Below are positions 3,365 to 26,401 of a stretch of DNA of 64,000 bases, piece after piece; position 1 is the first letter of the stretch, and every line of letters starts with the position of its first letter. Position numbers and translations under genes: made by a program. The notes under the pieces were generated by a model. The model searched no databases. It had not been told where the DNA came from and saw only the letters and a program-made list of their open reading frames with translations. The stretch is taken from the NCBI GenBank assembly GCA_020348905.1, contig CP070756.1:1554311-1618310 (forward strand), in the 5' to 3' direction. The DNA comes from Candidatus Zixiibacteriota bacterium (GTDB lineage: Bacteria; Zixibacteria; MSB-5A5; GN15; FEB-12).

Positions 3365-3409
3365 GCCCGGCGGAATCGTCAGCCGTCTTGCGTAAAGAGG
3401 TTACCGGCC

Positions 3410-10304: not shown

Positions 10305-10305
10305 C

Positions 10306-13300
10306 ATGCGTCGCTGGCTTAAGATAATAGCGATTACTATCCTTACCCTGGTACTTCTGATAGGCGGAGCGTATCTGTACCTGTTTCACCTGGGCGGCAT
10401 AGAAACCGTTATCAACGCCAAGATATCCGGTCTTGTCGAACAGCGTTATCGCCTTGACGTCAAAATAGGAAGGGTCAAGGGGAGTTTTCTGTCTGATCTG
10501 GTAGTCGAAAACGTCGTCGTCTACTATGACGACCCTACCCGACGCTACCAGATACTTACCGTGCCCCGGATATCGGCGTCTTACGCACTGGCCAACATCT
10601 GGGAGGAGCGGTTCATTTTCGACTATCTGTTTGTCGACTCGGCCGAGATCGTCATGCTGCAGGATACCACGGGCGAGTGGGTTATTCCTGATTTCACGCC
10701 CAAGCGAGAGCCCGATGATACCGCCGCCACCAGGCTGCCGTCGTTTTCGGTCGGCAACCTGGGTCTGCGCGATCTGAGCATAAGGTTGGTGAAGCCCGAT
10801 GACACGGTGAGTTTCGATGATATTTTTGTGTCGCTGGCTTTTAAGGGCGAAGACAACACTTATTCGGTTGATGTTGAGCAATTTGAGTTTACCTCCAACA
10901 GGCAGAAGCTTCAGTTGAACGCGGCCGGCGGGAAGGTCACGCTCGCCGATAACCGGCTTCTGTTTCAGGATGTTGCTCTTGTTTCCGGGGATGTCCGGAT
11001 GAAATTGAGCGGCAATATAGACCTGGGTGGCCCGCCGGCAGGCATTGTATCGTTTGCCGCCGACAATATGGATCTTGCTGATGTTACGGCTTATGTCGGT
11101 CCGCGTCTGAAGGGGGTCGTTGATGTCAACGGTACGGTTAATTTCACCGGCAGCGCTTTGAGCGGCACCGTCGATATCGGCGGTGACTTCATGATGGCCA
11201 GTCTGCAGAATCTTTTCGTGGATTTTTCGTACGAGAACGGTTTTTTGTACTTCGACACGCTCTACGGCACGATTCTGGAGAACTGCGCCGTCGACGGAGG
11301 TGGTTACGTGGACTTCACCGAACGCCCGGAAACCTATATGTTAGAAGCGGACATCAAGGGTTTCAATCTGAACACTCTCGTGGGCGGCACTTTCGAGTCG
11401 GACCTCAACGGCAATATTATCATGTACGGCGAGTCATTTCGCAATGCTGACCTGGCTTTAGACCTGCACGCCGAATTGTACGAGTCGTCGTTCGATGAGT
11501 ATCCGATTCATCGGGGTTTCGGCGATGTTCTGATTACGACCGACTCGCTCATATTTCTCGATTCGTTTCGCGTCAATTACTACGAGAATCTGTTTTATGC
11601 CTCAGGCAAGATCGACTACGGTGAGGGCATCGACCTGGATATTGCCATCGATCTGCCCAACCTTGACCGATACCGGGGCAAGCTGTTTATCGATCAGCCG
11701 GGGGGCCGCGGCCGGGCGCGGGCAACCCTGACCGGCCAGACATCGGACCCCGATCTCAGAGGATATTTCACATCCGATTCGATATGGATCTACGGTTTGT
11801 ACAGTGATAGCATGTACGCTACGGTCGAGATTGACCGGTTCCTCAGCCGCAAGCTTGGTACGGTTGAGGTCGATTTCTTTGATGGTACCGTTTATGAGAC
11901 TCCTTACGACACCGGGTACGCTCTACTGCGAGTGGATTCCAACCTGGTGTTTTTTGACACGGCGCGCATAGCCAATCCTTTCACCAGCCTGGTCGTAGCC
12001 GGTGACTACGATTACGAAGCGATACCTGGACTGTTAACCGTAGACAGTCTTAGCCTGGATTTGTTCGGGCAAGACTTCTACAACCGTTCAAAAATCGTGG
12101 TCGAGGTGGATTCGCTCGGGTTCCAGTTCACGCAGGCGGCCATCGGTAACAACGGAGCCGGCCTGACGGTGCGGGGCAGGGCCAATTACGATGAAACGAT
12201 GGACATGATGTTATCGGTGTCACACCTGCCGATCGAACCCTGGAAGAATTTGTTTGTGGAAAGCCTTTTGGTGACGGGATACCTGTCGGCGGAGGCATCG
12301 CTAACGGGCTCCTTTGCGGAGCCGCAGTTTATCATCAACGCTTTTCTGGATTCGCTCGAGTACGAAGGTTTGCTCCTGGGTGATATCGCCACGAGCGTGA
12401 CCTACGATAACCGTCTTTTGAATATCGAGAATTTCCAATTGCTGTCCGAGTACGGTGATTACCGGGCCGACGGCTCTTTCTATGTGGACCTGGCGTTCAC
12501 GGCCGACTCGCTGGAGCGATTTCCCGATTTGCCCATGGAGATACGAATCGCCGCGGTCGACAGCCGCTTCGACCTGGTCAGCCTGTTGCAGCCGTCGGTG
12601 GAGGACCTCACAGGCGACTTTTTCGCTGATTTCGTTCTCTCCGGGACGCCGCTCGACCCACACCTTGAGGGTGAGGCCTTCATGATCAACCCGCGACTGA
12701 AGTATTTCGACCTCGAGGAAAGACTGTTCGGTGATTCAATCTCGGTGACCATGGAGAACAATCGGATTATTATCGATACGCTCGAGGCGTACTATGCGAA
12801 AGACACGACCAACCTATCCGAGCGAGTATCGGTGTTTGCGAGGGGTACTATCACGGTGATGTCACTCGATCGGTTCTACTACGATCTTGATGTGCGCGTA
12901 CCGGAGAAGTTTCCTTTCAGGTATGAACTTGATGACATTTCCGGTGAATTCGAAGGAAATTTACGCGTCGAGGGGGACTCGCCGCCGCGGGTTGTCGGCG
13001 ATCTGGAGATGAGCAGCATGCGGTACCTGGTCAATTTTGCCGAGCCGAATGAACTGTCGCCGGTGATCAAAGCGTTTGAGGGGGACAACCTGTGGGATCT
13101 GGAGGTCGACTTCAGCATTCCATCCAACTACTGGATCAAGAATGAAGATATCGATGCCGAGTTCGCCGGCGAGGTGACGATGCTGCGCAACGCCGGGGTG
13201 TATAGCTTTGTCGGTCAGATGGAGGTGCTGCGCGGTCGGGGCTTCCTGTTTGATAAGATCTTCCAACTCGAACCGGGAGGCCTGGTGACCTTTGAAGGAG

Positions 13301-13854
13301 GTGAGACTTTCAACCCGCTGCTGGAAATTGAAGCCAACACTTACATCGCCGGTAGTCGTGGGACGGACGAAGAAGACCGCAATATTGAACAGCTGCGCCT
13401 GGGTATCCTGATAACCGGTACGCTTGAAGAGCCGGAGATAAATGTCACCGAGGATTCCGATGTCGGGTCGCGCGAGGATATCTTGCCGTTGATTGTAGCC
13501 AACCAGTACGCCGGGGAGGGTGGAACCGCCACGACCAGCCTGGAGACGAGAGTAGCCAGCCTGGTATCGACCCAGTTGTCTCAGATCGGTTCGCGTCAGC
13601 TGGGCCGGCTGGGTGTTGAGACTTTCGAACTCGACCCCGGTTACTCCGGCGAGTTTGATCCGCTGGAAACCAGGGTTACACTGGGCCGGTACTGGACGCC
13701 ACACTTTTACACTTATGGCAGATCTTCGCTTTCGGGACAAAGCCGTCAGGAAGTCGGGTTTGAATACCGGTTCAATAAGTCGGTCATTCTGGAGGGACTT
13801 CGTGACGAGGATGAGCTGTACCACCTTAACCTCAAACTCAACTGGGAATTCTAA
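10306..13854 (+). CDS. tamB: Translocation and assembly module protein TamB (AsmA-like, DUF490 C-terminus)
   Basis: 1182 aa with an N-terminal anchor MRRWLKIIAITILTLVLLIGGAYLYLF, a long beta-rich body and a C-terminus ...GRYWTPHFYTYGRS...GFEYRFNKSVILEG...LNLKLNWEF. Start at the ATG at 10306, just after the previous stop. Confidence 0.8.
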   Translation: MRRWLKIIAITILTLVLLIGGAYLYLFHLGGIETVINAKISGLVEQRYRLDVKIGRVKGSFLSDLVVENVVVYYDDPTRRYQILTVPRISASYALANIWEERFIFDYLFVDSAEIVMLQDTTGEWVIPDFTPKREPDDTAATRLPSFSVGNLGLRDLSIRLVKPDDTVSFDDIFVSLAFKGEDNTYSVDVEQFEFTSNRQKLQLNAAGGKVTLADNRLLFQDVALVSGDVRMKLSGNIDLGGPPAGIVSFAADNMDLADVTAYVGPRLKGVVDVNGTVNFTGSALSGTVDIGGDFMMASLQNLFVDFSYENGFLYFDTLYGTILENCAVDGGGYVDFTERPETYMLEADIKGFNLNTLVGGTFESDLNGNIIMYGESFRNADLALDLHAELYESSFDEYPIHRGFGDVLITTDSLIFLDSFRVNYYENLFYASGKIDYGEGIDLDIAIDLPNLDRYRGKLFIDQPGGRGRARATLTGQTSDPDLRGYFTSDSIWIYGLYSDSMYATVEIDRFLSRKLGTVEVDFFDGTVYETPYDTGYALLRVDSNLVFFDTARIANPFTSLVVAGDYDYEAIPGLLTVDSLSLDLFGQDFYNRSKIVVEVDSLGFQFTQAAIGNNGAGLTVRGRANYDETMDMMLSVSHLPIEPWKNLFVESLLVTGYLSAEASLTGSFAEPQFIINAFLDSLEYEGLLLGDIATSVTYDNRLLNIENFQLLSEYGDYRADGSFYVDLAFTADSLERFPDLPMEIRIAAVDSRFDLVSLLQPSVEDLTGDFFADFVLSGTPLDPHLEGEAFMINPRLKYFDLEERLFGDSISVTMENNRIIIDTLEAYYAKDTTNLSERVSVFARGTITVMSLDRFYYDLDVRVPEKFPFRYELDDISGEFEGNLRVEGDSPPRVVGDLEMSSMRYLVNFAEPNELSPVIKAFEGDNLWDLEVDFSIPSNYWIKNEDIDAEFAGEVTMLRNAGVYSFVGQMEVLRGRGFLFDKIFQLEPGGLVTFEGGETFNPLLEIEANTYIAGSRGTDEEDRNIEQLRLGILITGTLEEPEINVTEDSDVGSREDILPLIVANQYAGEGGTATTSLETRVASLVSTQLSQIGSRQLGRLGVETFELDPGYSGEFDPLETRVTLGRYWTPHFYTYGRSSLSGQSRQEVGFEYRFNKSVILEGLRDEDELYHLNLKLNWEF

Positions 13855-15771
13855 GTGCTGAGAAAGACGCTGCTGCTTTTTGCCTTTTCATCGCTTTTAT
13901 CCGTGGCCTGGGGCCAGACCATCGACCGGGGCACCCTGCGCTGGATGCGTGACCGACCCATCATTGATTCGATTGTCATTGAAGGCAACCAGGCTATTTC
14001 GGATTCGCGGATTCGCTCGCGGATGTACTCCAAGGTGCGGACATTCTTCGATATGCTCAAAGGGGAGAGGCGGAGCCGGCTGCAGCGCGAAACCTACGAC
14101 CGCGATACCCTCGAGATAAAGTACCTGTATCTGACCAACGGCTACCTGGGTGTAAGGGTCAGTGAGTCGTTCGAGGTTCTTCCGGTGGATTCTACCGCCC
14201 TGATAAAAATCGCCATCGACGAAGGCCGGCAGTATTTTTACGGCGACAAGGCGGTTGAGGGAGATTTTCATCCGGGCTTTGCGATACGTTTTGAAAAGAT
14301 TTATCGAAGACTGAAGACGGGCCAGCCGGTGAACCCATTGGCTCTGAGACAAGTCGCTTTCGATATGAAAACGTCACTTGCCAACAACGGCTACCCTTAT
14401 GCCAGTGTTACTTTCGAATTCGACACGGTTATATCGCCTCCTGTTACACCCATCGCTTTCACCGTTGTTACTGATTCGGTGGTGCATTTCGGCGACGTTT
14501 TGATTCAAGGGACCGCGAATTATCCCGAGTTTGTCGCCCGCCGGGAACTGAAGATCAAGCCGGGTGACCTTTACCGGCGGCAGGCTATCGTTGATTCCCA
14601 GAGGCGGCTGTTCGAGTCCGGGTACTTCAGTTACCTCCAGCTGGAGAGGATGGAGACCAACGGTGACCGCCTGAATCCCGATTTCCGTCTCAAGGTCCGC
14701 GAGAGACGTCCTAAATTCATTTCGGTCAAGACCGGTGCCGGTCAGTCGGAACTGAAAGACCTGATTTGGGATTTTTCGTTTGGTGCCGGCAAGCGCAATT
14801 TCATCGGCTCGCGGAGGGTGAGCCTCACTTCCGACTACTCATTTTCACTCGGTGAGGAGTCCCGGCTAATCACCCATCGCTATCGGCTCCGATATACCGA
14901 GCCATGGTTTTTGGGTTTCAGGATGCCGCTTACGCTGACCGGCGAGTATGAGCCGCCGATTAAATCAACACTTCAAGATTTTACTATAACATCTTGGGGT
15001 GTATCAGCATCTACTATTAAATGGTTTGGCGACAAGGTCAAGACCACCACCGGCGTGGAGTACAACGAGGTCAAGATATCGGATGTTCCTCCCGAGCTGG
15101 AGCAGGAGTTGAAGGAGGCGGAGGGAATATCGGCCCGGCGCAAGATTTACACCGTCTACCGGCGCGACAGCCGCGACAATATCTTCATACCGAGACGCGG
15201 CTCGCTCAGCGACATGTCGGTCGAGTTTTTCGGAGGGTTCTTAGGAGGCGACGACGACTTCTACAAGATCGAGGCGAGTTGGGGGCGGTATCAGACAGTC
15301 TGGCCGGGGTGGATTTCGGCCACGCGGCTGAAGGGGGGGTACGTTACCGAATTCGGCGATTCCGAGGTCGTTCCCAAAGATGAGCTTCTGTATCTGGGCG
15401 GTGCCAACACCATAAGGGGTTTCAAAGAGAATACGCTCGGACCGCTTCGTGAGGATGGCTCGGCTGAAGGTGCCCGGATTACCCTGATTTTCAACCAGGA
15501 GTTCCGGTGGAAGACGATTCAGGTTTTGAAGGCGATTCCCTGGCGCGTTTTTGAAGAATTGCCACTGTGGCAATCGGTCTTCCTTGATGTTGGTAACGGT
15601 TTTCGTAATGATACAGAGATAGCGATTGACAACCTGGCTGTCAGCTATGGCACCGGTTTTCAGATTGTCTCACCGGCCGGACCGATACGTATCGACTATG
15701 CCCGGCGCGTCAAGACGGAGAAATATGACTTTGACAGCCGATGGCACTTCACTATATTATATGCCTTTTGA
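13855..15771 (+). CDS. tamA: Omp85-family outer-membrane protein with POTRA repeats, TamA-like
   Basis: Signal peptide, POTRA-like repeats (IDSIVIEGNQAISDSRI, GDVLIQGTANYPE) and a C-terminal barrel with GGANTIRGF and terminal ...FTILYAF. The GTG start abuts the tamB stop. Confidence 0.75.
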   Translation: MLRKTLLLFAFSSLLSVAWGQTIDRGTLRWMRDRPIIDSIVIEGNQAISDSRIRSRMYSKVRTFFDMLKGERRSRLQRETYDRDTLEIKYLYLTNGYLGVRVSESFEVLPVDSTALIKIAIDEGRQYFYGDKAVEGDFHPGFAIRFEKIYRRLKTGQPVNPLALRQVAFDMKTSLANNGYPYASVTFEFDTVISPPVTPIAFTVVTDSVVHFGDVLIQGTANYPEFVARRELKIKPGDLYRRQAIVDSQRRLFESGYFSYLQLERMETNGDRLNPDFRLKVRERRPKFISVKTGAGQSELKDLIWDFSFGAGKRNFIGSRRVSLTSDYSFSLGEESRLITHRYRLRYTEPWFLGFRMPLTLTGEYEPPIKSTLQDFTITSWGVSASTIKWFGDKVKTTTGVEYNEVKISDVPPELEQELKEAEGISARRKIYTVYRRDSRDNIFIPRRGSLSDMSVEFFGGFLGGDDDFYKIEASWGRYQTVWPGWISATRLKGGYVTEFGDSEVVPKDELLYLGGANTIRGFKENTLGPLREDGSAEGARITLIFNQEFRWKTIQVLKAIPWRVFEELPLWQSVFLDVGNGFRNDTEIAIDNLAVSYGTGFQIVSPAGPIRIDYARRVKTEKYDFDSRWHFTILYAF

Positions 15772-15857: not shown

Positions 15858-17027
15858 ATGGAATCGATATATCTCGACCACAACGCCACCACGCCGGTTG
15901 ATCCTGAGGTCGTTCAGGCCATGCTGCCTTACCTGTCGGGAAACTTTGGCAATGCCAGTTCGGTTCACGCCTTTGGCCGCGACGGCAAAGTAGCCCTCGA
16001 AAACGCCCGCGAGATGATCGCATCGGTCATAAACTGCGAGCCTTCGGAGCTGTATTTCACTTCGGGCGGAACCGAATCAGACAATATCGCCGTCCTTGGC
16101 ACTGCCCATCGGTTCAAGGGCAGGAAGGACCATATCATAGTGGGCGCCGCCGAGCATCACGCTGTTTTGGAACCGGCCGAGTACCTGGCTCACAGCGAAG
16201 ATTTCAAGTTGGACCTGTTGCCGGTTGATGGCGAGGGTTTCTCGTCGCCCGAGCAGTTGAAAGAGCTTGTCACCGATCGGACGGCCCTGGTCTCGGTGAT
16301 GCACGCCAATAATGAAACCGGTACAGTTCAGGATATAGGCGGACTGGTCGAAGTGACGCACGCCAAGAATTGCCTGTTCCACACCGATGCCGTTCAGTCC
16401 ACGGGTAAGATCAAGGTAGATGTGAAGCGCATGGGTGTCGATATGGCTACCATAACGGCGCACAAGATTTATGGCCCCAAGGGAATCGGAGGCCTGTATG
16501 TCCGGGCAGGGGTGAAGGTGTCGCCACTTTTTTACGGCGGAGCACATGAGAAGAAACGCCGCCCCGGCACGGAAAACGTCGCCGGCGCGGTCGGATTTGC
16601 CAAAGCGCTTGAAATAGCCATGCGCCGCCAGGAGGATGATTTCCGTAACATGAGCGAGCTGGCCGATTACTTCATCGACAAAGTCATCGGAAGCATACCT
16701 GATGTCATGCTGAACGGGCCGAGGAAGAACCGCATTCCCCAGACAATGAATATGTCGTTTAACGGTGTCGAAGGGGAGTCGGTTGTTCTGGCCCTGGATC
16801 TCAAGGGGATTGCCTGTTCGTCGGGATCGGCCTGTACCTCCGGGGCCACCGAACCCTCGCACGTGCTGAAGGCGATGGGTGCCGAGGCCGTATCGGCCCA
16901 GGGGGCCATTCGTTTCTCTCTCGGTCGCTCGACTACAAGGGATCAGCTCGATTATGTTATCTCCGTTTTGCCCGAGGTAATCGGCAAACTGCGCGAGATG
17001 TCGCCTTTTTACAGTCAGCAAAAGTAA
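15858..17027 (+). CDS. nifS: Cysteine desulfurase (NifS/IscS type, class V aminotransferase)
   Basis: IYLDHNATTP, TSGGTESDN, HTDAVQ, ITAHKIYGPKG (PLP Lys) and the active-site loop SSGSACTSG. Confidence 0.9.
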   Translation: MESIYLDHNATTPVDPEVVQAMLPYLSGNFGNASSVHAFGRDGKVALENAREMIASVINCEPSELYFTSGGTESDNIAVLGTAHRFKGRKDHIIVGAAEHHAVLEPAEYLAHSEDFKLDLLPVDGEGFSSPEQLKELVTDRTALVSVMHANNETGTVQDIGGLVEVTHAKNCLFHTDAVQSTGKIKVDVKRMGVDMATITAHKIYGPKGIGGLYVRAGVKVSPLFYGGAHEKKRRPGTENVAGAVGFAKALEIAMRRQEDDFRNMSELADYFIDKVIGSIPDVMLNGPRKNRIPQTMNMSFNGVEGESVVLALDLKGIACSSGSACTSGATEPSHVLKAMGAEAVSAQGAIRFSLGRSTTRDQLDYVISVLPEVIGKLREMSPFYSQQK

Positions 17028-17091: not shown

Positions 17092-18177
17092 ATGATCCAA
17101 AAAGTTCTGGTAGCCATGTCGGGGGGGGTGGACTCATCGGTGGCGGCGTTGCTGCTTCGCGAGATGGGTTACGATGTGGTCGGGGCCCACATGAAGCTGT
17201 GGGATTATGTTGATGTGGGTGGTGATATCCACAAAGACGGCCGCTGCTGCACGCTGGACTCCATCAATGACTGCCGGATGATCTGCAACGCGATAAGTGC
17301 TCCCTTCTACGTCCTGAACCTGTCACAGCAGTTCAAAGAGAAAGTGATCGAGGATTTCGTGGCCGAGTATCGCGCCGGCCGTACGCCTAACCCCTGCGTG
17401 AGATGCAACATCGATGTCAAGTGGAGCGAGTTCCTTCGCAAGGCCAATGAGGTCGGATGCGACTATATTGCCACCGGCCATTATGCCATAGTCGAACAGG
17501 AGGAAGACGGCCGCTGCCAGATTCGCAAGGGGACCGACAAGAGCCGTGACCAGTCGTACGTGCTGTGGGGGATATCTCAGGAGGCGCTGTCAAAGACGAT
17601 TATGCCGCTGGGGGCGATGCTGAAATCGGAAGTACGGTCGCTGGCCAAGCGGTACGGTTTGCGCACGGCCGAGAAAACGGAATCGCGCGAGATATGTTTT
17701 GTGGCCGACGACGATTACCACCGGTTTCTGACTGAATACGAGGCCAAGGAGGGCCGGACGTATCAGCCGGGGGATATTGTTCATCAGGACGGGCGCGTTC
17801 TGGGTCAGCACAAGGGGACGCCTTTTTACACAATCGGTCAGCGCAAGGGGCTTGGCATAGCCCATCCTACGCCGCTATACGTTCAGAAGATTGATGTGGC
17901 CAACAATCGTATCATTGTCGGTGATGATGAGGCCCTCTTCGAGCAGGAATGTGAAGTGGAAAACGTTAACTGGGTGAGCATATCGCCGCCGGAGCTTCCG
18001 GAGCAGGCCGAGGTGAAGATTAGGTACCTGCATCCGGCGGCATCGGCTACGGTAACGCCCTTGACCGACCGGACGGTCCACGTTATATTTGACGAAAAGC
18101 AGCGCGCTATCACGCCCGGCCAATCGGCTGTTTTTTACCGCGGCGACCTTCTTCTCGGCGGCGGGGTTATAGCTTAG
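17092..18177 (+). CDS. mnmA: tRNA 2-thiouridine(34) synthase MnmA
   Basis: PP-loop VLVAMSGGVDSSVAA, NPCVRCN, ATGHYA and DQSYVLW motifs along the full length. Confidence 0.95.
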   Translation: MIQKVLVAMSGGVDSSVAALLLREMGYDVVGAHMKLWDYVDVGGDIHKDGRCCTLDSINDCRMICNAISAPFYVLNLSQQFKEKVIEDFVAEYRAGRTPNPCVRCNIDVKWSEFLRKANEVGCDYIATGHYAIVEQEEDGRCQIRKGTDKSRDQSYVLWGISQEALSKTIMPLGAMLKSEVRSLAKRYGLRTAEKTESREICFVADDDYHRFLTEYEAKEGRTYQPGDIVHQDGRVLGQHKGTPFYTIGQRKGLGIAHPTPLYVQKIDVANNRIIVGDDEALFEQECEVENVNWVSISPPELPEQAEVKIRYLHPAASATVTPLTDRTVHVIFDEKQRAITPGQSAVFYRGDLLLGGGVIA

Positions 18178-18221: not shown

Positions 18222-18250
18222 TTGACAAAATGCGGTTCGGCTGATATTTT
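18222..18250 (+). promoter_or_regulatory. Candidate sigma-70 promoter for the first radical-SAM gene
   Basis: TTGACA, 17 nt, TATTTT, located about 95 nt upstream of the ATG at 18347. Confidence 0.35.
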
Positions 18251-18346
18251 GGGAAAGTAATTGCTTCCGCGCTCGAAGTGGGCGTTTGTAGTTGCAGCAC
18301 AATCCTCACCATATATTACACCAAACCCTCATGCGAAAAGAGCCGG

Positions 18347-19672
18347 ATGAAGGCGTCACGGTTTAATAAAGTCGTTGAAATTGAAAGCGGTAACAGGCTC
18401 CTCTTTAACGCCGACACGGGCGCCATCGCGGAACTTCCCCCCGAATCCTACAGCAACGTCAAAAAATTGCTGTTTGCACCGGCAAAGGCGGAGACGGCCG
18501 AGGACCGTAAGCTGGTCGACCAGTTGCTTTACGGAGGGTTTCTGAGCGAGCCCGGCTTTGATGAAATCGCTCATCTGAAGGTGGAAAACGGGCGGCACCG
18601 GTTCGGTAACCCGCTCGGTTTCATTGGAATAGCGCCTACATTCGAGTGCAACCTGACCTGCGGGGGGTGCTCGTCACGTAACCAAAAGGGGCGCATGACC
18701 AAACTGGTGGAAAAGGCAGCGCTCAAGTTTGTGGCCAGGCAGATAAAGAAGTGTGACGAGCTTCAGGTCTGCTGGTTTGGAGGTGAGCCCCTGCTTGGTA
18801 TTGAAACCATCGAACGGCTTCACCGCGGTATTGCCGAGTCAGCCGCCAAATACGATACGACGCTGCAGGGAAGTACTATCATTACCAACGGGTACCTGCT
18901 CGACGCCAAGATGGCCAAAAGGCTGAAAGAGGCCGGCGTGACCGGTGCTCAGGTAACGCTGGAAGGGCCTCCGGAAATCCATGACTCGCGACGGAAACTT
19001 CCCGACGGTACGGGCACCTTTGATACCGTCCTGGGCAATATTGCCGCAGTGGCCGAGGAGCTTGATATTGTTGTCAGGATAAGTGTCCTGGAGAACGACC
19101 CCGAAGCGGCGGTTGAGGTAGTGGAGATTCTGGAAAAGCAGGGCCTTCTTTCAAAAATTGGGTTCTATTTCGGTCCAGCTGAATCGGGATGTGATGCGTG
19201 CGACAGTGTTGTAGGCCAGTGCCGGCTGGATGACAAAGAGGTTGAGGTGCAGTTGGGGATTTACCGTCGCCTGGCCGAAAGCGTTTCCAACCGGATGGAT
19301 TATCCGTATCTGATTCCCTTCCGGCGATGCGGATTCGATTCGAGCCGTTCATTTTTAGTAGCGCCGACCGGATATGTGTTCAAGTGCTGGGAACAGGCTT
19401 CGGCGCGAGTCGACGACTCGGTGTGTAATGTGTTCGGTGATGATCCGGAATCGTTCCAGCAGTCGAACCAGTGGCGGTTCACAGCATTCGACCCGTTTGA
19501 CAGTTCGGAGTGTGTTAAGTGTGACATTCTGCCCGTTTGTATGGGTGGGTGTCCAATCGCGATAGAAGACCGTAGCAATATGATCAAATCTGGGTGCAGT
19601 CCCTGGAGGAAAAATTTGGAGGAGCTGCTTGTGCTAAGGTACCTTTATGAATTAAGAGAGGAGGTGATCTGA
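18347..19672 (+). CDS. Radical SAM/SPASM peptide-maturase-like enzyme with an N-terminal RRE-like extension
   Basis: CNLTCGGC (CxxxCxxC) about 115 aa from the start. Complete SPASM pattern C-x13-G-x4-C ... CVKCDILPVCMGGC ... C. The N-terminus RFNKVVEIESGNRLLFNADTGAIAEL is typical of peptide-binding maturases. Start at the internal ATG; the ORF track begins at the GTG at 18278. Confidence 0.85.
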   Translation: MKASRFNKVVEIESGNRLLFNADTGAIAELPPESYSNVKKLLFAPAKAETAEDRKLVDQLLYGGFLSEPGFDEIAHLKVENGRHRFGNPLGFIGIAPTFECNLTCGGCSSRNQKGRMTKLVEKAALKFVARQIKKCDELQVCWFGGEPLLGIETIERLHRGIAESAAKYDTTLQGSTIITNGYLLDAKMAKRLKEAGVTGAQVTLEGPPEIHDSRRKLPDGTGTFDTVLGNIAAVAEELDIVVRISVLENDPEAAVEVVEILEKQGLLSKIGFYFGPAESGCDACDSVVGQCRLDDKEVEVQLGIYRRLAESVSNRMDYPYLIPFRRCGFDSSRSFLVAPTGYVFKCWEQASARVDDSVCNVFGDDPESFQQSNQWRFTAFDPFDSSECVKCDILPVCMGGCPIAIEDRSNMIKSGCSPWRKNLEELLVLRYLYELREEVI

Positions 19673-19791
19673 TGCTGTTTATCGTTCTGCCTGATCGAAG
19701 CACTGCAGGATCCGGACCAGGATGTGCCGTCAAGACGGGACCTTGTCCCAAGAAAGTGATAAGCATTCTTCCGCCGCCGGCAATTTGGTAG
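19672..19791 (+). CDS. Unannotated 39-aa ORF, candidate RiPP precursor (MLFIVLPDRSTAGSGPGCAVKTGPCPKKVISILPPPAIW)
   Basis: The ATG overlaps the upstream TGA (TGATG). A strong SD, GAGGAGGTGA, ends 4 nt upstream of the ATG. Two Cys sit in a Gly/Pro-rich core. Too short for the supplied ORF track. Confidence 0.35.
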   Translation: MLFIVLPDRSTAGSGPGCAVKTGPCPKKVISILPPPAIW

Positions 19792-19809
19792 CCGGGTGTA
19801 ACGTTGGCG

Positions 19810-19840
19810 CAGATTGGTCAGCGATGCTGCTTCCAATCTG
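19810..19840 (+). other. Stem-loop downstream of the small ORF
   Basis: CAGATTGG-15 nt-CCAATCTG, a perfect 8-bp stem with no T-tract. Confidence 0.3.
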
Positions 19841-20019
19841 AAGAAAACAATACACGACAAACAGAGGAGGGGAAATCTTTGTTTCTGTCATCGGCCCCGA
19901 AGCAAGCAGGAAAAAGCCCTGTCCGCTACCAAGCGGAGGACTGATTTACCTGGTCTGGCCGCCGGTGATTAGGTAAGACTTCGACGAGTATACAACCATA
20001 AGGGGAGACGCGGTTAATG

Positions 20020-20047
20020 TTGACAGACCGTGTTTCCCCTGTATTTT
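20020..20047 (+). promoter_or_regulatory. Candidate sigma-70 promoter for the second radical-SAM gene
   Basis: TTGACA, 16 nt, TATTTT. The same hexamers occur at 18222. Confidence 0.3.
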
Positions 20048-20065
20048 GACTATCATCAGACTGTT

Positions 20066-21094
20066 ATGACTACTTCCGGACAGAGAAAATATAGCTCCAT
20101 CGGCTGGGGCATAACCCGACGATGCAACCTGTCGTGTCCGCACTGCTACACTTCAGCCGCCAAAACATCCACGGGGGAGCTTACCACCGAGGAGTGTCGC
20201 GAGATTATTGACTTGATGCCCGGTCTGGGAGCAGAGAATATCGGCTGGACCGGGGGGGAACCTCTGCTCAGAAAAGATCTGGAAGAGCTTATGAGATACG
20301 CCCAGCGCTACGGAATCACGTCGAGCATTACGACCAATGGCATTCCGCTCACGAAAAGACGGGTGGCAAAGCTGGCGGAGGTTGGACTGAGGGCGCTGCA
20401 GATCAGTCTCGACGGTTCGACGCCGGAGAAAAACCGTAATATTCGCAGGGCCCGCCTGGCGGACTTCGAATTAGTTATCAACGGAGCAAAGATGTGTTTG
20501 GAAGCCGGTCTGCCGGTGACCCTGGCCATGATCATCTCTCGCGATACCATCGACGATGTTATGGACTATGTTGCTATGGCTCGAAACCTGGGTGTCAACT
20601 CAATAAGATTCTGCGGTTTTGTTCCTCACGGTGATGCCGAGGACGGCGAGGCCCGGCACAGGCTGGAGTTTTCCGACCATCACCGCGAACTGTATGCTCT
20701 TGTGGAGAGACTGGTGGACGTAGAGTCTCCAACAATAGTCTTTGACGCGGGCCATGGGCCGGTGCCTCCCGGTTACAGTTGTCACCAGTGCAATGCAGGG
20801 ACGGAGACATTCTATATATCGGATAATGGCGACGTCTACCCATGTACCGGACTACTGTACGATAGGTTTAAGGTTGGTAACCTGCGACTACGTCCGCTTC
20901 TGGAACTTATTGACGACCCCAAGATGTCGGAGATGGCCAGATACGATCACAGCCAGATTCATGGTCATTGCCGCGACTGTCAGTACTTCCGTGTTTGCCG
21001 CGGGGCCTGCCGCGGAGCTACTTACGCCCACACCGGCGACTTGAACGCGTCATTCCCGGTGTGTTTGTTTCGGGCCTCGCTACTGGAGACTTAA
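20066..21094 (+). CDS. Radical SAM/SPASM domain protein (PqqE/NirJ/AhbD-like, no N-terminal RRE)
   Basis: CNLSCPHC near the N-terminus, GGEPLL, and a complete SPASM pattern C-x12-G-x4-C ... CRDCQYFRVCRGAC ... C. Start set at the ATG at 20066. Confidence 0.85.
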   Translation: MTTSGQRKYSSIGWGITRRCNLSCPHCYTSAAKTSTGELTTEECREIIDLMPGLGAENIGWTGGEPLLRKDLEELMRYAQRYGITSSITTNGIPLTKRRVAKLAEVGLRALQISLDGSTPEKNRNIRRARLADFELVINGAKMCLEAGLPVTLAMIISRDTIDDVMDYVAMARNLGVNSIRFCGFVPHGDAEDGEARHRLEFSDHHRELYALVERLVDVESPTIVFDAGHGPVPPGYSCHQCNAGTETFYISDNGDVYPCTGLLYDRFKVGNLRLRPLLELIDDPKMSEMARYDHSQIHGHCRDCQYFRVCRGACRGATYAHTGDLNASFPVCLFRASLLET

Positions 21095-21201: not shown

Positions 21202-21879
21202 ATGCCGCAGGTCAAATTTCTCGGTCACTCCTGTGTGACCATTACCGAGGGAGAACACAAGCTCATCATTGATCCCTTCCTGTCGGATAATCCCAAGGCA
21301 CCGGTCAAGGCATCTGATGTCGATGTCAACTACGTACTGCTGACTCACGGGCATGGAGATCATGTCGGGGACGCTATTGCTATCGCCAAACGCAACAAGG
21401 CCACGGTAATCGCCAATTTCGAGCTGGCCAACCTTTGCGCAGGGGAAGGTGCGCAGATTCATCCGATGCATATCGGCGGTTCGCACAAATTCGATTTCGG
21501 GCGCGTCAAACTCACTATCGCGCATCACGGTGGCGGTTACGGCGCCGATGCGTCGCGTTACACGGGACCGCCCTGTGGTTTTTTGATCACAATCGGCGGG
21601 GCCACGATCTACCACTCCGGTGACACCGGCCTGTTTTATGACATGAAGCTGATTGGTGAGATGAACCGTATTGACCTGGCCTTTCTACCTATCGGTGACA
21701 ATTTCACCATGGGGGTTGACGATGCCGTCAAGGCGGTCGAATTTTTGTCCCCAGCCAAGGTGGTGCCGTTCCACTACGATACCTGGGACATCATCGCCGA
21801 GGATCCCAAGAACTTCGCCGACCGGGTAAAAGGTGCCGAAGTGTTTATACTCAAGCCCGGAGAAGGCCTGACCCTGTAA
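21202..21879 (+). CDS. UPF0173-type metal-dependent hydrolase (MBL fold)
   Basis: KFLGHSCVTI...IDPFLSDNP...LLTHGHGDHVGD...HSGDTG, typical of the UPF0173/YtkL family. GGAGAG SD. Confidence 0.8.
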   Translation: MPQVKFLGHSCVTITEGEHKLIIDPFLSDNPKAPVKASDVDVNYVLLTHGHGDHVGDAIAIAKRNKATVIANFELANLCAGEGAQIHPMHIGGSHKFDFGRVKLTIAHHGGGYGADASRYTGPPCGFLITIGGATIYHSGDTGLFYDMKLIGEMNRIDLAFLPIGDNFTMGVDDAVKAVEFLSPAKVVPFHYDTWDIIAEDPKNFADRVKGAEVFILKPGEGLTL

Positions 21880-22003: not shown

Positions 22004-24835
22004 ATGAAGAAGTTTTTGAAGATTCTGGGCTGGGTGGCCGGTGCTGTCATCGTCCTGTTGATACTCGCGATCGCTGGTTTATGGTTGTTCTTTCCGATTG
22101 AGAAGGCTAAAGAGATGGCGGTGGAGCGCGGCAGCGCCCAGCTGGGACGAACGATAACAGTCGAAGATGCGGCCATTTCGTTCTGGGGCGGTCTGGGGGT
22201 CAGACTTGGCAATGTGGCGGTAGGCAATCCTGCTGCCATGGAAGACGGCGATTTCCTTAAGGCCGAAGATGTCGATGTCAAGCTGCAGATTCTGCCGCTG
22301 CTTTCAGGAAACTACAAAATCGACCGGCTGGTTATTAACCGTCCCGAGATAGCTATGCTCAAGCGTGCCGATGGCACCAACAACTACACGTTCGAGGCCG
22401 TCGAAAAAAAAGCACCGCCCGAGCTGGCTGAGAAAGTTGCGCCCGAGGCCAAGGCAGCGGCTTTTGCCGTAACCTTTGACGAGCTTGTAATCAATGACGG
22501 CATGCTAAGTTTTGTCGACGATAGTTCCGGCATGAGTTTCCGCCTTAACAATCTTGACCTGTCTACTTCATTAACAAGCCCGCGCGCGAATTACTATCGT
22601 TCATCGGGAAGTATAGAAGTCGATTCGGTGGCGGTGTCGCTGGATGTTCCACTTCCACCGCTATCGGTGAAGCTCGATTACAATCTCGACTACGACCCTG
22701 CTACCAGGCAAATTACGTTCGAAGAAACCCGGCTGGAACTCAACCGGGTAAAATTCGCTCTTAAGGGGGAAGCGCATGATCCAACCGGGCAGCTAAAGAG
22801 CAAGGTGTCGATTAAATCCGAGAAGATCTCGGTGGCTGATTTATTCGCTCTGCTTCCGCCGGAGAAACTGGAAGCCACCCGGGATTTCGAGATAGACGGC
22901 GACTTTACGCTGGACCTTGATGTTGAGTATGACCCCGACCATCCAGATACCCTTACCTATTACGGCACGGCGCTGATAACCTCGATGAATCTCTCTCACC
23001 GGGAGGTGCCGGGCCAATTCGAGTTCAGCCGCGCCCTGCTGGACTTCAAGACCGATAACCTGAGATTCAATATCGAGGATGCCTACTTCGACGGAAATCC
23101 CGTCAAGGGGCACCTGGTCGTGGACAACTTCGATGATCCCACCGCGAACGGCGAACTGGCCGGCAAGTTCAACCTGGCCTATCTGCAGCCGTTCCTCCCG
23201 GCCGAGGGTCAGCACACCATTGCCGGCGGCAGCGAATTCGACATAAAGCTCTCCGGTAAGCCGAGAGACTTCGGCTCCATGAGTTTCTCCGGCAGCCTCA
23301 AGGTATCCGGCGGCAGCTATAACTCGGCGGCCCTTTTCGAGCCGGTCGAATCTTTTGATCTCGACGTTTATTTCGACAACCGCCTCACCCATGTCAGGAA
23401 GCTCACCGGGCGAATGAAGTCGGGCGACCTGTCTTTCGAGGGTCGCTTTAACGATCTGGTTCCGTACTTCATGGCGGATTCGGTCACCCGTCGCATGATC
23501 GCACCCACCATTGACGGTTCGGTGTCAGGGAATGTCGATCTGGCGGTGGTAAACATGTTTTTGCCGCCTACGGGAAATCCCGAGCTCAAGGGTGACCTGA
23601 GCACAAACATAAAGATGACAGGGGTATTGACCGACTACGAACGGCTTCGGCCGAGCGGAAAGCTGACTATTCGGAACGCCTCTTATACCGATTCGCTGTT
23701 ACCGGAGCCGGTGACCCATTTCGAGGCGGAGATGACTATCGCGCCGGATACCATCACGGTCAATAACCTTACGGCGAAGTTCGTATCAAGTGATGCCTCA
23801 TTCTCGGGCAAGCTGGTCGACCCCTTTCCGTACCTTCTGCCGATCGAAGGAGTGGACCGCAGCCAGGTCAACAAGCCGTTATTTCTGTTCCAGCTGTCCT
23901 CGAACCGGTTCGATGCGGATAAACTGTTTCCGGAGGCCGTGCCCGGCTCCGGGGAAAATCGTGCTACCGTGTCGGTGGACTCGATCTCGCCCTTCATCCT
24001 GCCTGACATAGACGGACAGGGGACGTTTGAGGTGGACACCCTTATCTACAGCCAGGTTGAGTTTACATCGCTTCAGGGGAAGATAAAGGTTTACGATCGC
24101 AAGATCGAATGCTACGACGCTACCGGGAAGGTGTACACCGGTGACGTTTCGGGCAAGACCACGATTGACCTGCAGGATTTCGAGAACCCCCGGTACGTTG
24201 GCGAGTTCAAGGCCAGCAATGTCGAAGCGGACGACTTTGTCAGCCGGTTCACGAAATTCGGCGGCTACCTGTTCGGCAAGGTCAATATGGAGGGCAATTA
24301 CAATGCCAGCGGCTGGGAGGCGCAGGATTTTTTGAATTCGCTGACCATGAACTCGGCGTCGTCGATGCAGCAGGGGAAGGTAGTTACGTCGGGCGTCGTT
24401 TTCTCCGCCATAAGCAGCCTGGCATCGAAGGCCGGCGAGACTTTTGAGAAGGAACAGTCCCTGCGCGATCTGAGTACAAACGTGGTTGTCAAGGATGGCA
24501 AAGTATCAGTTGACAAACTCCAGACCGGGTTGGGTAAGGTGGGTGACGTTCAGCTGGACGGTTTCTACGCTTTTACGGGAGACATAAGTTACAGCGGCAC
24601 TATCCTGTTGTCGAAAGAGTGGTCCGAGAAGCTTGTTTCGCAGAAGGGATTGCTGGGTAACCTGGCCGGTTTGTTGTCGGATAAGAGTGTCGATCGCATC
24701 AAGTTGCCGATTGCCTTCGGCGGTACGATCGATCAACCGTCGTTTGATGTCGACTATACAGCGCTGGCGAAGAACCTGGGCGAGAACCTCAAGGATGAAG
24801 CCGGGAATCTGCTGGACAAGTTGAAGAAAAAATAG
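22004..24835 (+). CDS. AsmA-family outer-membrane biogenesis protein
   Basis: 943 aa with an N-terminal anchor KILGWVAGAVIVLLILAIAGLWLFF, then a ...TVEDAAISFWGGLGVRLGNVAVGNP start typical of AsmA, and a long repetitive beta-rich body. Confidence 0.8.
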   Translation: MKKFLKILGWVAGAVIVLLILAIAGLWLFFPIEKAKEMAVERGSAQLGRTITVEDAAISFWGGLGVRLGNVAVGNPAAMEDGDFLKAEDVDVKLQILPLLSGNYKIDRLVINRPEIAMLKRADGTNNYTFEAVEKKAPPELAEKVAPEAKAAAFAVTFDELVINDGMLSFVDDSSGMSFRLNNLDLSTSLTSPRANYYRSSGSIEVDSVAVSLDVPLPPLSVKLDYNLDYDPATRQITFEETRLELNRVKFALKGEAHDPTGQLKSKVSIKSEKISVADLFALLPPEKLEATRDFEIDGDFTLDLDVEYDPDHPDTLTYYGTALITSMNLSHREVPGQFEFSRALLDFKTDNLRFNIEDAYFDGNPVKGHLVVDNFDDPTANGELAGKFNLAYLQPFLPAEGQHTIAGGSEFDIKLSGKPRDFGSMSFSGSLKVSGGSYNSAALFEPVESFDLDVYFDNRLTHVRKLTGRMKSGDLSFEGRFNDLVPYFMADSVTRRMIAPTIDGSVSGNVDLAVVNMFLPPTGNPELKGDLSTNIKMTGVLTDYERLRPSGKLTIRNASYTDSLLPEPVTHFEAEMTIAPDTITVNNLTAKFVSSDASFSGKLVDPFPYLLPIEGVDRSQVNKPLFLFQLSSNRFDADKLFPEAVPGSGENRATVSVDSISPFILPDIDGQGTFEVDTLIYSQVEFTSLQGKIKVYDRKIECYDATGKVYTGDVSGKTTIDLQDFENPRYVGEFKASNVEADDFVSRFTKFGGYLFGKVNMEGNYNASGWEAQDFLNSLTMNSASSMQQGKVVTSGVVFSAISSLASKAGETFEKEQSLRDLSTNVVVKDGKVSVDKLQTGLGKVGDVQLDGFYAFTGDISYSGTILLSKEWSEKLVSQKGLLGNLAGLLSDKSVDRIKLPIAFGGTIDQPSFDVDYTALAKNLGENLKDEAGNLLDKLKKK

Positions 24836-24886: not shown

Positions 24887-25573
24887 ATGACGTGGCTGGC
24901 TGAGCAGTTTGGAATTCTTTCGAAAATCTTCTACTACCTGATTCAGGTGGTTCACTGGACTGTCCTGATTTCGGTTCTGGCTTACCTGCTGGCCCTTATC
25001 TGCGGCCTGGTCTTCGGCATCGCCCGCATCTCGCGAAATCGTTTCATCAGGAGCATAGCCGGGGCATACATAAATGTTCTCAGGGGAGTGCCCCTGCTGG
25101 TACTTATCTTCTTCTTTTATTTCGGTCTTGGCAAGTTTGTCAATCTTGACCGGTTTGTGGCCGGTGTGCTGGCAGTGGGGGTATGCTATGGCGCGTACAT
25201 GGCCGAAATTTTCCGCTCGGGAATTGAAGCTATCGATTACGGTCAGCACGAAGCAGCCATGTCGCTCGGAATGACACGATGGCAGACTCTTCGACACATA
25301 ATTCTGCCGCAGTCGTTCCGGATAGTCGTGGCGCCGGGGGCAAATGAGTTTATTGCCTGCCTGAAGGATTCCTCGCTGGTGTCGATTATCGGACTGCGAG
25401 AGCTTACCCGGGCCGGACGGGAATACGCCAACCAGTATTTTCTCGACTTTCACACCTGGTTGATGGTGGGCATAATATACCTGATTATGACCCTGACGCT
25501 CACCCGGCTGGTAAAGCGCCTGGAGAAGCGATTCGCGATTCATGGTTATGGAGTCACCCGCCATGATAATTGA
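24887..25573 (+). CDS. Polar amino acid ABC transporter permease (HisM/GlnP family)
   Basis: EAA-loop region [43 protein letters not shown]. Confidence 0.9.
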
Positions 25574-26288
25574 CATCAAGAACATTGTCTGCCGTTTTGG
25601 TGAAATCGTCGCCCTCGACGATATCAGTTTGAGCGTTGACCATGGCGAAGTAGTGGTTATCCTGGGACCGTCGGGATCAGGGAAGTCAACCCTGCTGCGA
25701 TGTCTGAACGCACTTGAAGAGATTCAATCCGGTGAGATTAATGTTGATGGCTTCCTGATTGATAGAAATCACCGCCAGATTCACCAGATCAGGCTCGAGG
25801 TGGGTATGGTTTTTCAACAGTTCAACCTCTTTCCGCATCTGACGGTGATCGAAAACGTCAACCTGGCGCAACGGGTGGTTCGAAAGCGCTCCCGGACCGA
25901 GGCTGCCCGCGTTTCCACGGAACTGTTGAACAAGGTAGAACTGGCGGACAAGACCGAGGCGTTTCCCGGTCAGTTGTCCGGTGGGCAGAAGCAGCGTGTA
26001 GCTATTGCCAGAGCGCTGGCTATGAATCCGAAGATAATGTTGTTTGATGAAGTGACTTCGGCCCTCGACCCGGAGATGATCGGTGAAGTGCTCGAAGTTA
26101 TGAAGCAGCTGGCGGCCGAAGGCATGACGATGCTTATTGTCACGCACGAGATCGGTTTTGCTCGCGAAGTAGCCGACCGGGTCATTTTCATCGACGAAGG
26201 CAAGATCGTCGAACAGGCCGCGCCCCGGCAGTTTTTCACTAACCCGACCAATCAGCGAACGAAGGATTTCCTGGCCCACGTTTTGTAG
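25563..26288 (+). CDS. Polar amino acid ABC transporter ATP-binding protein (GlnQ-like)
   Basis: Walker [11 protein letters not shown]-loop, signature [15 protein letters not shown], Walker [13 protein letters not shown] and H-loop VTHE. The ATG at 25563 overlaps the permease stop. Confidence 0.9.
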
Positions 26289-26401
26289 GGCCCAAGCCCG
26301 GGAAATACCAGGGGGGGACAAATTGGCAAGATTTGCCTCAAGAACAAATCGACACCGCCGACCGTTCTTTCTATAGATATCCAACTACGGTTAGCGCCCT
26401 G

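Follow-up and report, generated by a model that had tools for sequence, protein, structure and literature searches.

A conserved cassette of two radical-SAM/SPASM enzymes and a small Cys-containing peptide in uncultured FCB-group and Acidobacteriota lineages

Introduction

Peptides made by the ribosome and modified after translation (RiPPs) that are matured by radical S-adenosylmethionine (SAM) enzymes with a SPASM domain have been a recurrent source of new cross-link chemistry and of antibiotics, among them the sactipeptides, the ranthipeptides, darobactin and cyclopropyl-glycine peptides. In sactipeptides the Cys sulfur is joined to the Cα of an acceptor residue, in ranthipeptides to Cβ or Cγ. 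Leaders are bound by the RiPP recognition element (RRE), a PqqD-like winged helix of three strands followed by three helices, and hypervariable cores behind conserved leaders are common. Among the closest described systems, SCIFF loci are typically minimal, with a peptide and a radical-SAM enzyme and no dedicated protease or exporter; PqqE and MftC depend on a separate RRE protein (PqqD and MftB, respectively); and thuricin loci carry two different precursors together with transport genes. The Clo7bot system, a TIGR04334 maturase with TIGR04333 Cys-rich peptides in Clostridium botulinum, C. sporogenes and Paraclostridium, has to our knowledge been defined bioinformatically, its product being uncharacterised. 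Here we describe a two-enzyme cassette of this general kind in a 64,000-nucleotide stretch of a Candidatus Zixiibacteriota metagenome-assembled genome (MAG; CP070756.1), called the window below, whose coordinates are used throughout.

The cassette is compact, with three genes within about 2.9 kb, all on the plus strand: rSAM-1 (18347-19672; 441 aa), a radical-SAM/SPASM maturase with a predicted RRE-like N-terminus; a precursor peptide gene (19672-19791; 39 aa, MLFIVLPDRSTAGSGPGCAVKTGPCPKKVISILPPPAIW); and rSAM-2 (20066-21094; 342 aa), a radical-SAM/SPASM enzyme that has no RRE. It is clearly a radical-SAM/SPASM RiPP system and thus of a known kind. What is distinctive is a separate precursor family, an obligatory second enzyme that lacks an RRE, and the spread of the cassette in uncultured lineages of the FCB group and Acidobacteriota.

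Results

The cassette is conserved in differing contexts

We assembled 24 loci carrying the cassette (group A: the window, L001-L003, L005-L015, L017, L018, L023, L028 and L086-L090), 21 of them retrieved via rSAM-1 and three via rSAM-2 alone. They belong to MAGs of Zixibacteria, Ignavibacteria and Acidobacteriota. An rSAM-2 homologue (42-68% identity) adjoins rSAM-1 in all 24, and in each of the three loci picked via rSAM-2 a radical-SAM gene of 436-491 aa, an rSAM-1 homologue, lies immediately upstream. A small open reading frame (ORF) likewise adjoins the enzymes in 24/24 loci and sits in the gap between them in 20/24.

The surroundings of the cassette vary. The setting from mnmA to a hydrolase gene is common only to the window lineage (L001, L087 and partly L086), and L002, L003, L088, L089 and L090 each lie among unrelated genes. 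All-against-all ORF clustering of 21 group A loci returned no shared neighbour besides the two radical-SAM genes, and no shared protease, exporter or immunity gene. What other clusters recurred in this comparison consisted of shadow ORFs antisense to the two radical-SAM genes. The varied neighbourhoods and the lack of a shared neighbour argue that the cassette is an independent module and that its housekeeping setting is incidental.

A sequence-only reading of this DNA had proposed a minimal two-maturase RiPP cassette with a precursor of 39 aa in a gap of about 390 nucleotides (nt), and had suggested examining whether the three-gene unit recurs in related genomes. Our results support this proposal. 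The gap (19673-20065) measures 393 nt and holds that ORF, and the unit recurs in the 24 loci, the ORF being conserved at the amino-acid level. That reading had assigned the cassette to no known RiPP class, in agreement with our finding that no curated RiPP family cutoff is reached (Clo7bot, 250 of 600 bits) and that the peptide matches no model. Its word "orphan" is misleading, since the cassette belongs to a sizeable unannotated family. Its placing of the cassette among housekeeping genes is true of the window, while the mnmA setting is confined to the window lineage and does not belong to the system itself.

The precursor gene and its relatives

The precursor ATG (19672) overlaps the rSAM-1 TGA stop codon by one base, and a Shine-Dalgarno sequence read from the DNA, GGAGG (19660-19664, plus strand), lies within the rSAM-1 3′ end, 8 nt before the precursor start. 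Most gap precursors in the related loci also start at or a few bases from the rSAM-1 stop codon, and GGAGG(T)GA precedes the peptide start in most of them. When the window was cut into its 2488 six-frame segments and searched with a profile made from the peptides of four relatives (L085, L086, L001 and L087), with the window sequence left out, 19672-19791 came first, with an E-value of 8e-5 vs 0.21 for the runner-up. The homologous peptides of these four loci occupy the same position as the window ORF. Judged by this conservation, the 39-aa ORF between the enzymes is a real precursor gene; the contrary outcome envisaged earlier, an intergenic ORF that is not conserved, does not fit these results. 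A profile match of the window peptide at E 1e-10 arose by construction and is not used as evidence, and the gap ORFs 19722-19841, 19804-19944 and 19814-19972 as well as minus-strand ORFs were dropped, being not conserved in relatives and overlapping the real frames.

Peptides of the window lineage follow the pattern MLFIVxP…C…CPK..I.ILPP, the window peptide having two Cys and the tail ..VISILPPP. Listed by the identity of their rSAM-1 to that of the window, the relatives are L086 (52%; MLFIVPPIKNGDGPKCPNLDPCPLYVKPCPKNAIYILPPIYM), L001 (44-45%; MLFIIEPTSGKGPNGPNCPSDCTLLCGTLCATLCKPVIYPIIGIMLPIE), L087 (44%; a close variant of the L001 peptide, plus a second copy upstream of rSAM-1) and L085 (86%; MLFIVPPIKNGPGPKCPKKNVCEFLCSTLSPCVTKCMD…, interrupted by the contig end).

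The common precursor type in group A is 27-34 residues long, with the consensus MKFIEKPxxxxxKPCPCYKRLFLILPP(W), and most family members read MKFIEKP…KPCPCYKRLFLILPP; examples are the peptides of L010 and L090 (MKLIQKPQEQAQIPCPCYKKLFLILPPW) and of L003 (MKLIENPKGITPRKPCPCYRRLFLILPPGPK). Several loci hold two to four copies. The position of the gene is also variable: in L018 the precursor is placed after rSAM-2, and in L012, L015 and L017 no peptide lies between the enzymes, a variant precursor being found directly upstream of rSAM-1 (3300-4010 in each). These variants have a duplicated [YL]IIC core, for example (M)RLITLPGVTFARKPHYIICGVKGPLYIICGHY and (M)RLIIRPPDEVLGIDFLIICKVNGPYPIICFINKP. All precursor copies seen contain Cys, in most cases at least two, the number varying from one to six and the spacing varying as well; within the core, conservation is highest in the hydrophobic stretch with Pro-Pro, where I and P are nearly invariant. 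Among nine distinct DNA versions of the 14-codon core, differences at the three codon positions numbered 81/62/265 and thus fell mostly on the third, which supports coding constraint. Since an amino-acid motif had served to select the copies, the test is in part circular, and we take it as supporting evidence only.

Gene callers overlooked the precursor ORF in most loci. Searched with a profile, a set of 5.8 billion predicted proteins yielded no more than 15 called copies, all with uninformative names (for one, "hypothetical protein"). With NCBIfam models at E up to 10, neither the window peptide nor its four relatives gave a match, TIGR04333 (cutoff 31 bits) included, and phmmer with the window peptide against 1.84 billion representatives returned 0 matches.

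Two intact radical-SAM/SPASM enzymes

The 441-aa rSAM-1 product shares 100% identity with an NCBI protein encoded on a 3.27-Mb contig of a Candidatus Zixiibacteriota MAG. Its radical-SAM motif, CNLTCGGC, spans residues 101-108 (C101/C105/C108), and its SPASM Cys follow as C328-x13-G-x4-C347, C389-x2-C392-x5-C398-x3-C402 and C417. In rSAM-2 the motif CNLSCPHC spans residues 20-27 (C20/C24/C27), and the SPASM Cys are C242-x12-G-x4-C260, C302-x2-C305-x5-C311-x3-C315 and C333. The SPASM pattern was tested with the regular expression CX9-15GX4C … CX2CX5CX3C … C, which both enzymes match; in rSAM-2 the CX9-15GX4C part begins matching at the non-invariant C239. Domain models agree, with 42.4 bits for TIGR04085 on rSAM-1 (cutoff 27), 39 bits for Pfam SPASM PF13186 on rSAM-2 (cutoff 21.5), and 56.5 and 105.9 bits for Pfam Radical_SAM (PF04055) on rSAM-1 and rSAM-2, respectively. 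The radical-SAM and SPASM Cys, including all seven SPASM Cys of rSAM-2, are invariant in homologue alignments of 30 (rSAM-1) and 35 (rSAM-2) sequences, in both of which the window sequence served as the reference row. The CxxxCxxC motif and the full seven-Cys SPASM pattern that had been read from the letters in each enzyme are thereby confirmed.

Ahead of its radical-SAM motif, rSAM-1 carries a domain of about 100 aa. The sequence-only reading had given about 115 aa; the domain is present, and the larger figure fits a start at the upstream GTG at 18278, to which homologues give no support. It had also ascribed RRE-like N-terminal domains to such maturases, which agrees with the prediction for rSAM-1 and does not hold for rSAM-2. 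In the AlphaFold2 model of rSAM-1 (predicted local distance difference test score, pLDDT, 83), the elements before the barrel are β7-11, β17-21, β27-30, α32-43, α51-62 and α73-86, a predicted βββααα arrangement resembling the topology of an RRE. The best match among solved structures is CteB, by sequence (E 7.5e-11) as well as by fold (TM 0.68). Foldseek ordered the matches of the model as CteB, anSME and TigE, and TigE is the second-best solved structure by sequence; the model aligns over its full length with the RRE-bearing CteB and TigE.

Among curated families, rSAM-1 scores best with the Clo7bot maturase TIGR04334 (250 bits vs a cutoff of 600; the match spans model positions 1-436), followed at a distance from their cutoffs by TIGR04463, a radical-SAM/SPASM RiPP maturase (207.8 vs 525), CefB (175 vs 600) and PapB (NF047865; 103.1 vs 340). 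The top-scoring families, Clo7bot, TIGR04463, CefB, PapB and CcpM, are all maturases of Cys-rich peptides. The SCIFF maturase model TIGR03974 gave 59.8 bits (cutoff 425), and the cyclophane-forming families YhhB and GrrM/OscB matched weakly. Homologues of rSAM-1 at 35-86% identity come almost only from Zixibacteria, Ignavibacteria and some Acidobacteriota MAGs, and a metagenome scan with the window rSAM-1 alone returned only distant radical-SAM genes (25-30% identity).

In the AlphaFold2 model of rSAM-2 (pLDDT 90), a barrel strand at residue 11 comes first; the model opens directly with the barrel, and rSAM-2 therefore has no RRE. Its best fold matches in the PDB are PqqE, SkfB, BlsE, SuiB, CteB and anSME. 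The top NCBIfam match is AhbD (TIGR04545; 168.5 bits vs a cutoff of 500), ahead of StsB (163 vs 625), MftC (TIGR03962; 149.5 vs 265), NirJ (135.2 vs 515) and PqqE (TIGR02109; 128.9 vs 381), and rSAM-2 reaches no NCBIfam cutoff. These scores do not bear out the possibility, raised at the outset, that both enzymes are members of cofactor-biosynthesis families. The rSAM-2 family is tight, with at least 120 homologues listed at 46% identity or more; most are labelled just "radical SAM protein", and none of those listed has a curated specific name. Tetrapyrrole genes were found neither in the window neighbourhood nor as shared neighbours in the 21 clustered group A loci, and MftA/MftB or PqqA/PqqD partner genes neither in the window nor as shared neighbours.

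A second copy, a hairpin and promoter-like sites

Downstream of the precursor gene, positions 19864-19976 (plus strand) hold a degenerate second copy: after a strong Shine-Dalgarno sequence, GAGGAGGGG (19864-19872), come an ATC in frame at position 19875, a frame reading IFVSVIGPEASRKKPCPLPSGGLIYLVWPPVIR, and a stop codon at 19974-19976. The 3′ ends of the two copies are alike (19773-19790 vs 19958-19975, 83% identical). From its sequence, the second copy may be a paralogue in decay or, alternatively, a gene that starts at ATC.

Between the peptide genes and rSAM-2 lies a GC-rich hairpin with a 15-bp stem (20001-20040, plus strand). The 89-nt region containing it (19977-20065) folds at -28.4 kcal/mol (z -3.1), and GC-rich hairpins were found at the matching place in L001 (7476-7567, z -6.6), L002 (7413-7480, z -5.4), L003 (7422-7500, z -4.8) and L087 (7556-7645, z -3.4). 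In 5/5 loci folded, the structure thus stands between the last precursor gene and rSAM-2, with stems of 14-16 bp including that of the window, and it is the structure rather than the sequence that is conserved. Hairpins after the precursor genes of RiPP operons usually tune the precursor-to-enzyme transcript ratio, and the present one may act as an attenuator or a transcript stabiliser. An Rfam scan of the entire window gave 0 RNA families at threshold; a known riboswitch or small RNA is therefore absent from the gap.

A putative sigma-70-like promoter (TTGACA, 17 nt, TATTTT, with TG; 18222-18250, plus strand) precedes rSAM-1 and agrees with the consensus at 10/12 positions. In L001, L002 and L003, too, rSAM-1 is preceded by TTGACA and, some 17 nt further downstream, a TAxxxT box. 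A second promoter-like site (TTGACA, 16 nt, TATTTT; 20020-20047, plus strand), overlapping the 3′ arm of the hairpin, also agrees at 10/12 positions; its standing as a promoter, being a consensus match only, is uncertain.

Gene neighbourhood

The genes around the cassette, all on the plus strand, are those for TamB (10237-13854), BamA/Omp85 (13855-15771), a class-V aminotransferase of the IscS/NifS type (15858-17027) and MnmA (17092-18177) upstream, and for a metallo-β-lactamase-fold hydrolase (21202-21879), AsmA (22004-24835) and an amino-acid ABC importer (24887-26288) downstream. As first read, mnmA lies upstream and no protease or exporter gene adjoins the cassette; we found none within about 5 kb. 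A 703-aa subtilase (Peptidase_S8) is encoded at 26333-28444, 5.2 kb downstream of rSAM-2 and past the AsmA and importer genes; proteases near other group A loci are not conserved.

Accessory-looking genes occur sporadically at other loci. They include ABC-type ATPase-containing genes (L013:127-3788 and L017:6416-8218), an M48 peptidase (L088:229-1653) and, at L089 (1-1639 and 2679-3089), an M16 peptidase pair together with a small 4Fe-4S ferredoxin gene directly upstream. None of these extras is conserved across loci. Elsewhere in the window, the AT skew at 45-48 kb is strongly negative (-0.25 to -0.30); this stretch corresponds to the membrane-protein genes MurJ (44679-46256) and ComEC (46256-48532), and the skew is ordinary.

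Discussion

We consider it likely that the locus is a self-contained RiPP operon in which rSAM-1 would bind the leader and cross-link Cys and rSAM-2 would act at or near the tail. This working model follows from two associations: the leader motif tracks the rSAM-1-type enzyme, and the hydrophobic Pro-Pro tail tracks rSAM-2, having been seen only in cassettes that also have that enzyme. The operon would be transcribed from the promoter-like site at 18222-18250, with the precursor translationally coupled to rSAM-1 and the hairpin raising the precursor-to-enzyme transcript ratio. The RRE-like domain of rSAM-1 would bind the N-terminal leader (MLFIVxP in the window, MKFIEKP in most relatives), and the enzyme would apply 5′-deoxyadenosyl-radical chemistry to the Cys-containing core; the likeliest products would be Cys-to-carbon thioether cross-links, as in sactipeptides and ranthipeptides. 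Because rSAM-2 has no RRE, as is the case for PqqE and MftC with their separate RRE proteins, it probably works on a peptide that is bound to rSAM-1 or already modified, and its likely target would be at or near the hydrophobic Pro-Pro tail (..VISILPPP in the window, LFLILPP in relatives). Leader removal and export, if any, would fall to genes elsewhere. The product probably carries Cys thioether cross-links plus a second modification.

Several observations weigh against this model. The RRE assignment of rSAM-1 is based on predicted topology and position, Pfam PqqD giving no match, and the association between rSAM-2 and the C-terminal motif is correlative, drawn from a comparison of families. 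Sequence cannot tell thioether cross-linking from C-C cross-linking, cyclopropanation or epimerisation. The second precursor copy has no in-frame ATG, GTG or TTG start and only one Cys. A profile of the PCPCYKRLFLILPP type, made without the window lineage, misses the window peptide (E 99), which therefore appears as a divergent member, tied to the main type by its position, its M-x-F-I-x-x-P start, its two Cys and its …ISILPPP tail. Finally, the closest relative, L085, shares the leader MLFIVPP with the window but has a very different multi-Cys core (…GPKCPKKNVCEFLCSTLSPCVTKCMD…). Going by this pair of sequences, the precursor core is changing much faster than the enzymes.

Taken together, the points about the peptide could suggest that the cassette is a decaying remnant in the window genome, with intact enzymes, a drifted precursor and no functional product: two Cys in the window peptide stand against at least five in L085 and six in L001, both the start codon and one Cys are gone from the second copy, and the PCPC-type profile fails to recognise the window peptide. 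We regard this as improbable, since both enzymes retain every invariant residue of the family alignments (with the window as reference row), the precursor retains its Shine-Dalgarno site, overlapping start, MLFIV.P leader, two Cys and ILPP tail, and hypervariable cores are normal for RiPPs where the leader is conserved. More improbable still is a role for rSAM-2 in a cofactor pathway, as an enzyme of the AhbD/NirJ (heme) or MoaA type, with its place beside a one-enzyme RiPP system a matter of chance. AhbD is its top NCBIfam match, one homologue in the Joint Genome Institute data is named "AdoMet-dependent heme synthase", and rSAM-2 is preceded by a promoter-like site of its own; yet AhbD stays far below its cutoff, as NirJ, MoaA, PqqE and MftC stay below theirs, no heme or cofactor gene is common to the loci, and an rSAM-2 homologue stands beside an rSAM-1 homologue in 24/24 loci, including the three rSAM-2-picked loci in different neighbourhoods.

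As to the chemistry, a serious though less likely alternative is that the same RiPP cassette works differently, rSAM-1 and/or rSAM-2 modifying aliphatic or aromatic tail residues to give a C-C cyclophane from Tyr, Phe or Trp, cyclopropyl-glycine on Ile, Val or Leu, or epimers, with the Cys serving for disulfides or metal binding. Every precursor copy has at least one Cys and most have at least two, the top curated families of rSAM-1 all mature Cys-rich peptides, and the thioether-forming CteB is its best structural match, all of which favours cross-linking at Cys. Conversely, the hydrophobic stretch with Pro-Pro is the best-conserved part of the core whereas Cys number and spacing vary, the second-best solved sequence match of rSAM-1, TigE, is a methyl-cyclopropylglycine synthase acting on Ile, and the cyclophane families YhhB and GrrM/OscB do match, if weakly. 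More speculatively, and in our view unlikely, the product could be a non-exported, intracellular or membrane-associated modified peptide, a cofactor- or SCIFF-like "housekeeping RiPP" of anaerobic FCB-group bacteria, bearing an undescribed modification on a Cys-Pro/hydrophobic-Pro-Pro core and made by a complex of the RRE-bearing and the RRE-less enzyme. This idea arises because no protease or exporter is conserved in the 21 loci, because the core KPCPCYKRLFLILPP is almost invariant across distantly related MAGs, and because the window lineage has stably inherited the cassette between mnmA and the metallo-hydrolase gene.

The cassette is a good natural-product lead from phyla without cultured producers and a compact target for heterologous expression. 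No curated peptide model in NCBIfam matched the family, the homologues of the enzymes and the peptide have no specific names, and our literature search, which covered Clo7bot, the TIGR/NF accessions, OhkG/FlmE, Zixibacteria RiPPs and the peptide motifs, found no paper on it. With its extreme conservation and a length of only about 15 residues, the core lends itself to synthesis and to analysis by mass spectrometry and nuclear magnetic resonance. The obligatory pairing of an enzyme with a predicted RRE and an RRE-less one could reveal the way in which a substrate bound by its leader recruits a second radical-SAM enzyme. Should the chemistry hold nothing unusual, the cassette would add one more ranthipeptide- or sactipeptide-like family.

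Comparison with known and related systems

Two radical-SAM/SPASM genes encoded with precursors are a feature that the cassette shares with thuricin CD (TrnC/TrnD) and with RumMC1/MC2. TrnC and TrnD are active only as a complex (PMC12093266). That complex is a precedent for an RRE-less partner such as rSAM-2. There is, however, no detectable specific sequence relationship between those enzymes and the window enzymes. The latter clearly differ in type from each other (441 aa and a predicted RRE-like domain in one, 342 aa and no such domain in the other), and group A has no conserved transporter. The PqqE/PqqD and MftC/MftB systems resemble the cassette in that their loci lie among housekeeping genes and have no exporter; rSAM-2 is without an RRE, its fold is matched best by PqqE, and its better family matches include MftC and PqqE. 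They differ in that the window encodes neither a peptide like PqqA or MftA nor a stand-alone RRE and is devoid of accessory pqq or mft genes, and in that the scores remain below the family cutoffs.

For rSAM-1, the CteB/SCIFF-type synthases (PDB 5wgg/5why) offer the same order of N-terminal RRE (predicted in rSAM-1), barrel and SPASM domain, CteB being the best match, and the window cassette is likewise minimal, with no dedicated protease or exporter. Sequence identity between CteB and rSAM-1 is just 17-18%, however, and the SCIFF and PapB cutoffs are missed. Group A precursors are unrelated to those of SCIFF, having 28-49 aa with a PCPC..LFLILPP or C..CPK..ILPP core vs the six Cys in 45 residues of SCIFF, and group A has a second enzyme.

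The best-scoring family for rSAM-1 is Clo7bot, which shares with it the domain order of RRE-like domain, radical-SAM core and SPASM domain; the leader M-K-F-I-x-K-P and core Cys are common to Clo7bot and group A precursors. As a positive control, the C. botulinum locus L072 gave 843 bits on TIGR04334 for its radical-SAM enzyme and 36-58 bits on TIGR04333 (cutoff 31) for its peptides, whereas the window rSAM-1 falls below the 600-bit cutoff (250) and the window peptide has no TIGR04333 match. Clo7bot peptides start with MKFIKKP or MKYIVKP and end in CxxC/CxxxC-rich tails without the hydrophobic Pro-Pro motif; at their loci, 4-8 peptides in tandem lie upstream of just one radical-SAM gene. Group A, by contrast, usually has its precursor or precursors downstream of rSAM-1, with a Pro-Pro tail, and always a second radical-SAM/SPASM enzyme; the window has one intact and one degenerate copy.

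A further related system is a paralogous and unannotated two-enzyme cassette in the same phyla (group B: L025-L027, L029, L030, L033, L035-L038, L040, L043, L045, L046, L049, L050, L055, L056, L064, L067, L070, L076 and L084; examples are L050, L027 and L064). Groups A and B often occur in one genome, as in CP070796 (L012 and L050) and CAZFNN01 (L008 and L084). Group B loci have one to three precursors, MIYLIDPxxxxxxC..C...C.IKPLYG[IV]PP, upstream of a Clo7bot-like RRE-bearing radical-SAM enzyme (346 bits) whose gene overlaps that of a second SPASM enzyme (best family TIGR03913; 24-37% identical to rSAM-2). One group B peptide gave a huazacin match (14 bits vs 35), which we took for noise, as we did a single match to LptM. 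The two cassettes are alike in that the group B precursors resemble the window-lineage peptides and in that a first enzyme of the Clo7bot-like clade is followed by a second SPASM enzyme; they differ in that the group B peptides lie upstream of the first enzyme, the enzyme genes overlap and the second enzyme is of another type. The window-lineage peptide profile matches the group B peptides of L029 (E 2e-4), which indicates that the two groups form one superfamily of leader-sharing precursors.

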